Origin: Eledone cirrhosa
Taxonomy: Eukaryota
Assembly: GCA_964016885.1 (NCBI GenBank)
Contig: OZ024749.1
Coordinates: forward strand, 7,626,001 to 7,690,000
DNA: 64,000 bases
Direction: 5' to 3'
This document shows, piece by piece, positions 7,530-53,920 of this stretch. How positions within the stretch are numbered: position 1 is the stretch's first letter; every line of letters starts with the position of its first letter. The notes under the pieces are model-generated. The model had not been told where the DNA came from, did no database searches, and saw nothing but the letters and a program-made list of their open reading frames with translations. The translations under genes were made by a program, and so were the position numbers.

Positions 7530-7714
7530 TAGGAAAATGTTAGACCCCGACGGCAGAGCCCAAGCCATTTTGACGGCTATTTCTGGACTCGTCGAAACGG
7601 CTTGAGCTCTGCCGTTGGGGTCTAACATTTTCCTATTACCCACTCTACTACCCTAAGTATTGAGTACTCTGGTGCGTTATGGTCCATCTGGTTCCTTACC
7701 ACACATCCTTCGTT
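7530..7714 (-). mobile_element. Family A fold-back PLE terminal element
   Basis: Asymmetric palindrome in (TA)n containing GAAACGGCttgagctctGCCGT; matches the 3' end of the PLE at 53860-53920. Confidence 0.85.
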
Positions 7715-7987
7715 ATATACATGCATACATACATACATACATACATACATACATACATACATACATACATACATACATACATACATACATACATACATAC
7801 ATACATACATACATACATACATACGTACATACATACATTTATAAATACACACACGTACAAATATATGCTGCTCACACAAGTATATATATATATATATATA
7901 ATTAATATTAATACAATATTATATTTTATATACAAGTATATATATATATATATATCAACACATACATACATATATCCATGCTATATA

Positions 7988-8172
7988 TAATTGTTTCTAC
8001 TTTTGGCACAAGGCCAGCAATTATCTCAGTGTATTACTGGTACTTTATTTTATCGACCGCCATAAGGATGAAAGGCAAAGTTAACCTTGGCAGGATTTGA
8101 ACTCAGACCATAAAGGGCCGTAACTCGTTGCTGCAAAGCATGGCGTCCGACCCTCTACCGATTCTGCCAATG
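7988..8172 (-). mobile_element. Deu/Nin-core SINE
   Basis: Same consensus as 5747-5932. Confidence 0.85.
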
Positions 8173-10426
8173 CAGTATTGACGATATTTTTTTTTTTTTT
8201 CATTAAATTGTAACATACTTATGACGTTGTTAGTGGCTTGTTAATGCTAAAAGATTAGAGAGGAAGACGCGCATTTCAATTGCTTTAAACAAACATAAAC
8301 TGACTGGAAGTTATATTTATTTGGATGGTACGGTGTATGAAGTGTATAAACATTTCCGTATCATGAATTATAAATACCTCATATTAAGAACGAAATTCGA
8401 AACAGGGGGAAGTCATCACGATAGATCTCTTTCAATCAGCATCATCAGATTTATTTCAATATTAAATTTGATACGAGTAGTATGTACATAAATACGAAGC
8501 GACATTATAGAGAGAAGAGAAATATAGGCGGCCATTGTTGCTGCTGTTTTATATTCTACTCCGTTACATACGGCAGATAGCGTTAATGAACGAAAACGAA
8601 TGAAAACAAATGAAGACAAAAGCGTTAACATGTATATATCTGTGTATATATATAAATATGCGCGCGCGCGTGTGTGTGTGGGCTTGTGTGTATATATACA
8701 TATTTATGTTTATATATATAAATATATATATATATGTGCGTATGTATATATGTACATGTATATATATGTAGAAACATATACATATATATATATGTACATA
8801 TATATATATATATAAATATATATACATATATATATATATATATATATATATACATACACATATATATATTTATATACATACACACATATATATGTATATA
8901 TATATATATATTTATATATACATATATACATATATAATGTATATATATATATTTATATATATACATATATATGTATATATATATATATATATTTATATAT
9001 ATATATATATATTTATATATATACATATATATGTATATATATATATATATTTATATATATACTTATATACATATATATATATATATTTATATATATACAT
9101 ATATATGTATATATATATATATATTTATATGGAGAAGAACTTTATGAAACTGAAATGCTGGTATAAAGAATTTATTAGGTAACAATTGTTTCTATAGTGT
9201 ATGGTTACAATATATATATATTTATATATATACATATATATATGTATTTATATATATATACATATACACATATATATGTATATATATATATATTTATATA
9301 TATACATATATATATATGTATATATATACATATATATATACATATATGTATATATATATGTATATATATATATACATATATATATATATATACATATATA
9401 TATGTATATATATACATATATATATACATATATGTATATATATATGTATATATATATATACATATATATATATATATATATACATATATATATATACATA
9501 TATATATATATACATATATGTATATATATATACATATATATATATATACATATATATATATATATATATATATATATGTGTGTGTATATACATATATGAA
9601 TAAATATACATACATATATACACATACACAAATGTATGTCCGTTATATATGTTTGTGCGTATGTGGATATTTATTTCAGCTGAAAAATATATTACTTTCG
9701 GTATCTTTTCATCTTGTAGTTGGAGGATTATTCGACTAAGACTAAAACTGCCAAATACGTGTGCAAGTTTGACGAGAAATATATGGTTATTTTTGATGCA
9801 CGGTAGCGAATCCTCTGTATGGTGAGTCGGCGTAGGGGCGTTGAAAAATGACCCGCCCTCGTCTCCATCAAACAGCAACTGTTAAACATATACTACTGTA
9901 AGTGTTGTCGTGAGGACATGACAACTTGACACACTCGCCACGTTAAACATGATGCTGGTTTCCTGCCAGTTGGTTTTGCTCGTTTAAATCTGTCCAGCAA
10001 TTCTTTCTCCAGACATTCTAACTCGATGTCCGTAGTAACGGAGCTTTGATCTCTCGATTAAGAGAAATAGTTGCTTTAACTGTAGAGTCTTCTTCATCTC
10101 GAGACATGCAGCGTACACCAAATAGCGTTACTCCATTCTAACCATTTGTATTCACAATCATATTCTTTCTGTCATTTACCCAAGATTTTTTAGCCGTAGG
10201 TAAAGAATCAATAGATCGAACGGCTAAAATGCTCATCGGTTCAACAGACGAAAATCCCATTGCTTATCTCATTTTACGAAATTTGTTTTTTCATTCAAGC
10301 AATCTATGTATTCCATCATACATTTAATCCTGAAACCATTAATGTTAGTTTTTAACCAAGCATTATTAACCATTAAACATTTACGGCCATAAGGAAACAC
10401 ATTACTTTAGGTTTATTTCCCATTTT

Positions 10427-51283: not shown

Positions 51284-51292
51284 ATATATAAT

Positions 51293-51417
51293 GAGTACCA
51301 GCCTGCCCGCCCAGCTAGTGGGATGGCGTTATCTTATGGCTAAAACAGCACGACGTCCTGTGACCAGCGGCGCCGATTGGCACCCGACAGACTGGTCGGT
51401 CAAGGCGATCAAGGTGA
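51293..51417. other. Unclassified 125-bp GC-rich island between TA tracts
   Basis: CpG-rich, with sharp boundaries at TA repeats; no recognisable ORF. Confidence 0.4.
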
Positions 51418-51958
51418 TATATATATAATATATAATATATAATATATATAGACACACATATAAATATTCTTTTGCGGCATCTGCCCACGCCATCCAATAA
51501 TGTGTCTCTTTATAAGATTAGGAAACATTTTAACAGAATATCTGGGTATTGGAAGAATTCATTAACCATTCCTCAAGATATTCAATGTTCAGTATTATAC
51601 TAGCTTTCTTCACTAGCCCGGCTTGGATTATATATAAAGCTTAAAAGAATTATATATAAAGCTTAAAAGCTTTTAAGCAAAGCCAATGTAAGATACACAG
51701 ACGAACATAATACATGTTATATAACTTTCGTATATAGTTACATGTACAGCCCTATGTCACTCACTTACAAACTCAGTCAACATATATGTAGAGAATTGAA
51801 TACGTTTTACGTTCACTGTATTATAATTTCAAATATAAACCCCTGAACATACACGTCAGACGAGTCATAACCTTAAGATGCGTCATTAAATATTGTATTG
51901 ATCATGTTTCATTCTATATACATATGTATATGTATATATATATATATTATATAATATA

Positions 51959-53920
51959 GTAGTACAGAAGTTCAGACCGTGTCCGTAAACAACTTATCAA
52001 CTTTTTCCGGGACTGGGGATTTAAAATCACACTACAAACGTCTCTAACCCGAGTATATTTCCTGGACGTTACCCTCAACCTAGAAAATGATATGTACTAC
52101 CCATACAGGAAACCAAACGACAACCTGCACTACATCCACCGCCGCTCTAACCATCCGAGAAACATCACCAATTATCTGGTTAAAAACATATTTCGTTTGT
52201 CAGCTAATGAGCAGATATTCAACGAACATGCGCCTCATTACAACCAGGCCCTCAAGTGGAGTGGCTTGAGGGAGGAAATATCCTTTTATCCAGTTTCCCT
52301 TAGCGGAACCAGCAAGCGACGCCGCCGCCCACGCCACGTAACGTGGTTCAATCCTCCCCCACAATGCTGAGGTGGCAACACCTATCGGGAAAATCTTCTT
52401 TAGGCTCCTCGAAAAACACTTTCCACCACAACAACGCTACCACAACATACTCAACAAAAACACTATCAAACTATCCTACAGCACCACACCTAACTTCGCA
52501 CAAAACATCGTCTCCTCAAACAACGAAAATCTTAACACGTATGGAAGAAACAACCTAGAAATTAGTGGAGAGCCGACCAGGATGTGTAACTGCCCTGATA
52601 GATCTACGTGCCCCCTCAATAACAGATGCCGAGAACGTAACGTGATCTACCAGTGCAACGTGAGGACGGACACCTCCAACAAGGCTTATATAGGATTAAC
52701 CGCTTGTGACTTTAAGACCCGGCTCTACCAACACCGACATACGTTCCGAAACCCGGTCCGGCGACATGCCACCACACTTTCGGGCCATATATGGGACCTC
52801 CAAGATAATAATATAACTTACCATCTTACTTGGAGCTTACTGTCCAGAGCTAACTCTTACACGGGAGGACGCCGTCCGTGTAACTTATGCTCGGAGGAAA
52901 CATTACAAATGATGTTTACGAAGGATCAACTCCTAAACAAAAAAGATGAACTGGTAACTTCATGCAAACACAGATTGCAGAAGACTTATCTCGCCCTCAA
53001 ACTCCCTAATGATCTGGATGGGTAGACAAGGGCTGAAACAAGGCCCCACTTGTCGAATAAGATAGGGAAAACCCCAATTTATATTTTCTTTTCCTCTATG
53101 TTTTCTTCTTCACTTTGTCTCCTCCTATCACTTCTTTCCACCACCGAACTTCTTCCTCGTTCGTTCCTTTTTTTTCCTTTCGCCTACCTCGAGGCAGCCC
53201 ATCGGGCCTCTTTAGCGTCAGTACCCCACCCCAGTACCTTACAGATAGCATTCGCCGATTACGCTATACTAACTAATCATAACAGCTGTGTTAGACCCCA
53301 GAGATGTGGTATTAATTTTTAATACCCAATTCTAAATTTTCAATAATTCTCACCTAGCAACTCATTCTATAGCATTGGCCAAAAAAGCAGCACCAACTAA
53401 ATATAGCAGCTGTGTTAGACTCCTTAGTTTTTGTTTTATTTCACTTCTCACTTTCCAATCTTACATTCTGATATATCTGTCTCTCCTTTTTTATTATATT
53501 CTTTTTTATTATATTTTTTCTATGTCCCCTAATTCTCATTTGATTTACCTTTTCTATAACTTCCCGCCTCCATTTTCTAAAGAAACCTTTTTTCGCCTAC
53601 CTCCCCTGGCCTACTTTCATACACATTCCTTAGAATTTGCCGTGTAGATTTCACCTTCAATGCTTGACCGGCTCTACCCACTCCCTTATTATTCTACAAG
53701 CAAGTTCAGCCACCCCCACCCCGCACCCATTGGCATGATAGACTTTTCTGTGTCTGCTACAAATGTTGACCAATCATCTTGACAACTACAATATTACCAT
53801 ATAAGGAAGTACCACTTGAAATGTTCGGCTATTTATTTACCGGACTAAAAAACTCTTACTTTAGTCCAGAAATAGCCGTCGAAACGGCTTGAGCTCTGCC
53901 GTCGGGGTCATACTTTCTCA
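51959..53920 (+). mobile_element. 5'-truncated Penelope-like element (RT C-terminus + CxC linker + GIY-YIG; possibly Hydra clade), frameshifted, ending in the family A HHR
   Basis: FLDVTL..YRKP..YIH..SNHP; WFNPP; CNCx5C; VIYQC..AYIGLT; CNLC..E..LLNKK.EL...CKH. Frameshift at ~52365; (TA)n at both ends. Clade assignment is from recalled motif pattern only. Confidence 0.9.
53811..53908 (+). ncRNA. Type I HHR with long stem II (family A parent; degenerate U3-A8-type core)
   Basis: accac-TTGAAAT-g..cggctattt..ggactaaa/tttagtcc..aaatagccgtc-GAA-ACGGC-ttgagctct-GCCGT-C-ggggt; GUC at 53901-53903. Confidence 0.7.

Follow-up and report, generated by a model that had tools for sequence, protein, structure and literature searches.

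Head-to-head insertions of a Hydra-clade Penelope-like element as the probable origin of abundant short palindromes in Eledone cirrhosa

Penelope-like elements (PLEs) of the Hydra clade, Hydra-1_Obim (File S1) among them, are described in PMC8557442 as carrying a reverse transcriptase (RT) with a C-terminal GIY-YIG endonuclease (EN+), and are defined by a DKG to DKT change, an RWK motif, a CxCX5C linker and CxxC and CxH motifs. The same source reports insertion into (TA)n, a hammerhead ribozyme within pseudo-long terminal repeats (pLTRs), inverted 5'-truncated copies and a tail at one end, and calls the origin of the inverted pLTRs and of the one-sided tail an open question. Inverted pLTRs, tails, (TA)n targeting and PLE hammerheads are already known. 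In Poseidon PAc of Anolis, a PLE of another clade, both target strands are nicked and extended in vitro, and reverse transcription initiates internally at a pair of sites flanking the tail, a short distance downstream of the hammerhead. No RNA ends were found there at the ribozyme cut, and the part of PMC11167929 available mentions neither run-off at a transcription start nor head-to-head joining. In the twin priming of L1, as presented in PMC11702581, two target-primed complementary DNAs (cDNAs) that copy adjacent, nearly non-overlapping parts of the RNA form a microhomology-joined inversion, and an extra G marks capped 5' ends. Non-LTR retrozymes (bioRxiv 10.64898/2026.07.22.740005) are short non-coding PLE derivatives arranged in tandem with a complete ribozyme.

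Here, a stretch of 64,000 nucleotides (nt) of the Eledone cirrhosa genome (contig OZ024749.1, positions 7,626,001 to 7,690,000; hereafter the window) was found to contain seven palindromic insertions and one 5'-truncated PLE copy of the same family. Element coordinates are given relative to +1, which is A53863 of the window. The palindromes are head-to-head arm pairs lying between (TA)n runs, with 81-97% identity to PLE positions 53863-53923. They are short PLE insertions, in which two separately target-primed cDNAs probably ran off the 5' end of the RNA and were joined head to head. Such an origin would share with PAc the use of both target strands and two RT start sites, here +61 and +140; in contrast to PAc, a few arms end at the ribozyme cut. 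As in L1 twin priming, two target-primed cDNAs would be joined; unlike in L1, both would copy the same 5'-terminal 60 nt and run off the end. Minus-strand strong-stop DNA of LTR retroelements likewise arises when RT begins close to the template's 5' end and soon runs off it; in the present family priming would be by target DNA at two sites rather than by tRNA, no integrase is involved, and strand transfer is suggested by a single locus (L390) only. In contrast to non-LTR retrozymes, the palindromes are inverted rather than tandem pairs and hold only the 3' half of the ribozyme. The literature search found no report of run-off palindromes or of a start inside a PLE ribozyme; most subscription papers and Repbase lay outside its scope, and prior annotation of the repeat is quite possible. 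Dominance by palindromes of about 200 bp, as seen here, is not mentioned for Hydra-clade PLEs in the available part of PMC8557442.

The assembly is 3.0 Gb in size and rich in microsatellites, which dominated a repeat search with the whole window. Arms were parsed in 814 kb of unselected DNA, window included, and in 180 loci selected by similarity to six tail queries (30 loci each; a seventh tail query, whose words were too common, gave none), with four loci that were the window's own and exact duplicates dropped. Selection by tail leaves the inner end free but favours young copies. The parsed sample comprised 193 inverted pairs (386 arms) and 67 single arms, and all pair and arm counts below refer to these sampled loci and are not a genome-wide tally. 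The strict arm parse used for inner ends shifts old copies slightly downstream; a looser first parse had inflated -4 by over-extension through a natural near-palindrome at -4..+10 of the young subfamily. In the 750 kb of unselected DNA outside the window, 17 pairs and 6 single arms were present, from which a rough extrapolation gives an estimated 7-9 x 10^4 insertions genome-wide. The copy at 52-54 kb of the window was the only one in all 814 kb to extend beyond -10.

The arm pairs have a consistent architecture. One long and one short arm made up 173 of the 193 pairs, the remainder being two long plus long, one short plus short and 17 with a decayed outer end, and outer ends lay at +61/62 in 158 of the 386 arms and at +140 in 171. 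TA-rich flanks were present on both sides in 143 of the 193 pairs. The original prediction, made from the letters of the window, held that each palindrome forms anew at insertion and that its two arms are sisters. Both points were borne out, the second at subfamily level, with 145 distinct junction types among the 193 pairs and with 123 of 152 pairs differing at no more than one of 13 diagnostic bases, compared to 23 after shuffling; of 138 cases of rare variants, only 4 had the variant in both arms. Templating by two RNAs of different subfamilies was considered and is unsupported, as only 2 of 80 pairs, one of them a mosaic, were discordant in subfamily. With both arms of one subfamily, the template would be one RNA or RNAs of one locus. 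Microhomology at the centre averaged 1.42 nt against 0.69 nt under the null, joins of at least 3 nt numbered 16 against 4, and many junction inserts resemble copies of arm sequence, as expected of end-joining.

Breakpoints had been predicted to be non-uniform, and inner ends do peak sharply at a single base, A53863, with 261 of 386 arms ending within -5..+8. Among the 148 arms that reach +1, 78 stop exactly there and 118 have stopped by -5, while the per-base stop rate did not exceed 0.034 at the positions listed from +10 to +45. The base at +1, the modal inner end of all arms and the putative transcription start, is the A of T(T/C)AGT(C/A) within an initiator-like motif (53861..53866, + strand), which fits the insect initiator consensus. 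Conservation differs little across this point (0.81 upstream, 0.88 downstream). The base at -1 is naturally T or C in all 77 references. Nevertheless, of the 70 paired arms that end at +1, 35 have a non-reference G just before it, compared to 50 of 264 arms ending elsewhere. The excess was seen in junctions with inserts (16/35 vs 27/145, p=0.002), in clean joins (19/35 vs 23/119) and when recurrent junctions were collapsed (20/42 vs 47/215, p=0.001). An extra G is the mark reported for capped 5' ends in L1 insertions, and in Penelope of D. virilis the start belonging to an internal promoter lies within the pLTR (PMC2377424). Long copies behave differently from first-pass arms. Of 30 loci that carry the 5' untranslated region (UTR), six belonging to one duplicated tandem array were set aside; among the remaining 24, 17 reach +1 and 15 of these pass it (p=4e-8 vs first-pass arms). 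At L390, two + strand pieces each begin at +1/+2 with an extra G, a single case that fits run-off followed by a template jump.

A splice acceptor at +1/+2 was rejected, as the arms retain the AG and no constant upstream exon is present. Four palindrome centres (L227, L239, L246 and L267) share a different sequence upstream of +16 and probably represent a divergent sister PLE family with a start region of its own, with which loose ends in contigs from public runs agree. A small bump of inner ends at +16 probably derives from this sister family, which is missing from the references.

According to the proposed mechanism, the endonuclease would nick (TA)n on both strands, and RT would be primed from each of the resulting 3' ends, at +61 in one case and at +140 in the other. 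The template would be a capped RNA starting at +1, with cDNAs stopping after approximately 60 and 140 nt, often after one extra C has been copied from the cap, and host end-joining would fuse the two cDNA ends. The catalytic strand would be missing from the palindromes because the transcript would start inside the hammerhead, its 5' end holding half a ribozyme. For long copies the template was probably one in which +1 is no end, i.e. a read-through RNA, a circular RNA or one used after a template jump. A more specific version is put forward tentatively, namely that the palindromes are integrated strong-stop products. The capped messenger RNA would start inside the ribozyme, which would protect the cap; RT would start 61 and 140 nt away, hairpins being the outcome of copying such an RNA, and long copies and pLTRs would arise solely from ribozyme-processed circular RNA, from read-through RNA or from a rare jump across the terminal redundancy at +1..+41. 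If so, about 10^5 natural traces of a single reaction would be preserved in the genome, all of them marking the cap and a few the ribozyme cut. The model predicts a transcription start to the base.

Several findings weigh against a run-off at a capped +1 end. Full-length copies do not mark the start, as only 2 of the 24 loci with the 5' UTR end at +1/-5. Secondary peaks of inner ends occur at +2, +5 and +7 and at -1..-5, and the inner ends of paired arms are correlated (rho 0.29). The G is missing from half of the ends at +1, and RTs append non-templated bases where the end is uncapped, too. Thirteen junctions of a recurrent +1/+7 class lack microhomology under the references used, as would be expected if a subfamily carrying C at -1 had gone unsampled. 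The 17 junctions of the +1/+3 and +1/+5 classes are also compatible with a fold-back on the cap-derived C, and all 30 junctions of the three classes fit a fold-back after run-off. Placement of the RNA start at +1 derives from DNA signatures together with an initiator consensus. On the supporting side, contigs from public runs show a roughly 12-fold depth step at +1, with strand-switch joints between -5 and +1 and loose TA ends at +60 and +140, so that the pattern is not peculiar to this assembly, yet these runs come from one study, possibly of the same animal, and their depth does not measure copy number.

The recurrent +1/+3, +1/+5 and +1/+7 junctions (30/193) would give loops of 3, 4 and 6 nt if the terminal base pairs, as expected if one cDNA ran off at +1, folded back on its last bases and copied itself, either arm being later trimmed to +61 by the endonuclease; the tail is ascribed to endonuclease resolution in PMC8557442. 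Clean joins speak against such a fold-back. A central loop of at most 2 nt was present in 36 of 88, and after subtraction of 11 that a cap base could rescue and one centred on loop III, 24 of 88 would need a closing loop shorter than 3 nt, which makes priming by fold-back impossible and leaves annealing of two cDNA ends possible. Furthermore, within the recurrent classes the +1 arm is the short one in 13 cases and the long one in 17, and with short and long about equally frequent the primed end would need trimming, something incompatible with target priming. The two ends of the tail also coincide with RT start sites in vitro (PMC11167929). A single self-copied cDNA is considered unlikely.

Comparably unlikely is the same two-cDNA geometry on another template, either short SINE-like (short interspersed element-like) transcripts originating from the palindromes or an RNA cut by a nuclease, rather than initiated, at +1. 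Short copies far outnumber long ones, each long arm keeps +1..+140, and one haplotype occurs at 10 short loci with no identical long copy among the 72 long references, all of which would suit such a template. Against this, 7 of 12 recurrent short haplotypes match a long copy exactly in a thin sample of long copies, most arms lack the initiator bases -2/-1, and cleavage does not predict the extra G.

Slightly less probable again is that both cDNAs stall at an RNA structure, either stem II or a bound protein, on a long template of which +1 is no end. The stop zone does lie within a predicted hairpin (-9 to -13 kcal/mol across subfamilies), and RT may have lower processivity early on. However, few stops occur at the stem base (+10..+18), and they peak near its top; a stall would leave the extra G unaccounted for, and 15 of 17 second-pass cDNAs read through this same stretch.

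The original prediction had the nascent cDNA snap back on the long stem II of the hammerhead and self-prime the second arm, and self-priming, on an antisense template, has been proposed for PLE inverted junctions (PMC3846280). The clustering of inner ends on the 3' strand of stem II and the sister relationship of the arms are both consistent with snap-back, which we nonetheless regard as highly improbable. It needs a cDNA that reaches the 5' strand, at -15 or beyond, as do only 4 of 386 arms, and one such locus, L096 (-30/-15, checked by hand), is out of stem II register. It also needs the second arm to be nested in the first, whereas 59 of 173 long plus short pairs hold mutually exclusive sequence and 7 pairs have no arm overlap at all. 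In 60 of 173 pairs, the arm lacking the tail outreaches its tailed partner on the 5' side by 3 nt or more (59 once all shared junction bases are assigned to the tailed arm), and the reverse is true in 55. Upper stem II is poorly conserved. In eleven long inverted copies, the inner ends fall anywhere from -46 to -1660, the longer of the two arms being tail-less in 6 and tailed in 5, and the further claim that the ribozyme dictates the inverted pLTR geometry does not hold in general. The hot spot would coincide with stem II because the probable transcription start lies inside it. The individual junctions of this family speak against self-priming and favour priming of both target strands at the two start sites known in vitro. 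A miniature inverted-repeat transposable element with a fixed palindromic centre, as might be suggested by small size, inverted repeats, TA flanks and high copy number, can be dismissed almost entirely given 145 junction types in 193 pairs with no fixed centre, asymmetric ends in 173 of 193, subfamily-by-subfamily identity with the PLE pLTR, and recurrent junction classes in both arm orders and under several references.

All seven palindromes were present where they had been described, each with the 3' half of the hammerhead and each without the 5' catalytic strand. The inversion had been placed inside stem II; at least one arm does end on the stem II 3' strand in every case, but none contains loop II or the 5' strand. 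Six consist of a short arm ending at about +61 and a long arm with a 79-nt tail to +140, which is absent from the window PLE copy and present in other long copies. The first (7529..7716) joins a short arm (-, +1..+61), with a G just upstream of +1, to a long arm (+, +15..+140), and in the inverted insertion at 13603..13750 a long arm (-, +56..+140) and a short arm (+, +2..+62) barely overlap. The palindrome at 16953..17234, of the young subfamily, has two long arms, a type found in only 2 of 193 pairs, and a short insert at its centre. At 26802..26999, a short arm (-, +3..+61) and a long arm (+, +1..+140) form a junction of the recurrent +1/+3 class. An inverted insertion at 32551..32691 combines a short arm (-) from +8 with a long arm (+, +51..+140), and the last two palindromes have a long arm on the minus strand (+7..+140 at 40305..40473, +3..+140 at 40779..40969) followed by a short arm on the plus strand (+22..+61 and +7..+61, respectively). 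The inner ends of the seven, in order, are +1/+15, +56/+2, -4/+1, +3/+1, +8/+51, +7/+22 and +3/+7.

The palindromes belong to the same PLE family as the copy at 52-54 kb, as predicted, but that copy is a relative from another subfamily and not their parent. Variants shared by both arms of a locus had been called locus-private. They are subfamily variants: the haplotype at 7.5 kb was found again at 2 other sampled loci and that at 17 kb at 16, a count inflated by the 30 loci picked using its tail. Rfam matches to microRNA precursors on the hairpins at 7.5 and 26.8 kb are weak and lie far below threshold. An abundant hairpin repeat that resembles a miniature inverted-repeat element or a microRNA precursor is here retrotransposon debris, and annotation as PLE is warranted.

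The parent is a PLE of the Hydra clade as judged by diagnostic motifs, (TA)n target and pLTR structure. The window copy (51965..53923, +) lies in (TA)n, is 5'-truncated, has the short (+61) end, and carries neither tail nor inverted arm; it is 84% identical to a full-length unit on C14 over 51965-53052. Its open reading frame (ORF) remnant (51963..53025, +), in which the frame changes near 52350, encodes an RT thumb, a CxCX5C linker and a GIY-YIG endonuclease with motifs shared by P0001, a near-intact open frame of 731 amino acids with RT and C-terminal VIY..YIG motifs (by eye). By inspection, P0001 carries DKT, the CxCX5C linker, and CxxC and CxH around a conserved E and N, with a single Cys between VIY and YIG and no CCHH, and RWR was read in frame after the ATG at L390. 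These features, i.e. a single ORF with RT and C-terminal GIY-YIG, DKT, RW[K/R], linker and CxxC/CxH, are shared with the Hydra-clade PLEs of PMC8557442, as are (TA)n insertion, a pLTR with hammerhead, inverted 5'-truncated copies and a tail at one end; (TA)n insertion, pLTR, tandem and inverted structure and one-sided tail were all observed for the parent element. Pfam returned no matches for the window PLE ORF or for P0001. Homologues of P0001 numbered 789 among 8000 candidates, and the 120 of these listed, without clade names, are 37-53% identical. A complete unit of 3176 nt, with the ATG at +232, was found at L121. Full-length units form a tandem and inverted array at L120-L121 (C14:25.09-25.11 Mb), which is duplicated some 300 kb away (C14:25.39-25.40 Mb). 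The PLE 3' UTR contains a 73-bp internal duplication (53245-53317 and 53369-53441, 73% alike), also seen in other copies. The unit of 3.2 kb differs in size from the PLEs in PMC8557442, and the tail is 79 nt compared to the 30-40 bp stated there.

The hammerhead of the window copy (53811..53908, +) has type I topology, with its core at 53816-53822 (a U3-A8 variant), G10.1 at 53823, stem II at 53823-53880 and the 3' core at 53881-53884, followed by stem III and a predicted cut after 53903 (+41). It had been called the only complete fold, and it is the sole complete topology in the window, but its core is the U3-A8 variant and the copy carries damage, with T in place of A9 at 53822 and one disrupted base pair in stem I. 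Long copies show the features of type I, with three helices round a conserved core, a free N7 that takes all four bases, G10.1-C11.1 and a UH cut site. U3-A8-A9 is present in 65 of 72 long references, a proportion that partly reflects their selection with a loose core motif. A U3-A8 core has been reported for Schistosoma PLEs (PMC4209133). In 14 aligned copies, helix cells were paired in 90% compared to 24-49% when slid, and covariation did not exceed that of shuffles (194 of 500 reach the score); across subfamilies upper stem II is weakly kept (79.6% paired). No hammerhead was among the 150 of 255 Rfam matches listed, and folding alone fails to identify the strand, the minus strand scoring better (z -4.9 vs -2.9). 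This ribozyme, with its U3-A8 core, long interrupted stem II and 5-bp stem III, is unlike any Hydra hammerhead in the available part of File S2 of PMC8557442, and that of the octopus family Hydra-1_oBim in the same supplement differs from it throughout. At the predicted cut (+41/42) there is a minor pile-up of nine arm ends where 2.75 would be expected (p=0.002), and 2 of the 24 long loci also terminate there, a hint of cleavage in vivo and of cleaved templates. Loop III (53889-53897) contains a 6-nt self-complementary word, as in dimer-forming PLE hammerheads, and palindrome L093 is centred there.

Other repeats were also present in the window. Fragments of one non-LTR retrotransposon family lie at 22313-24109 (-), 36364-36798 (-) and 50603-51217 (+), with RVT_1 matches at 23264-24109 and 50603-51214 and a weak zf-RVT match at 22316-23260; the fragment at 36364-36798 resembles the C-terminal part of a non-LTR element by eye. 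A GIY-YIG-like fragment at 37834-38244 (-), with two CxxC-type pairs and a Pfam E-value of 0.033, probably belongs to a different PLE clade. A match to 5S ribosomal RNA at 50324-50442 (-; 105.7 bits) is a lone copy or pseudogene. A SINE-like dispersed repeat of 450 bp occurs in both orientations at 20336-20786, 21591-22041 and 54590-55039 (95-96% alike), and a 30-bp minisatellite at 35039-36300 gave 37 overlapping matches with a spacing of 30 nt.

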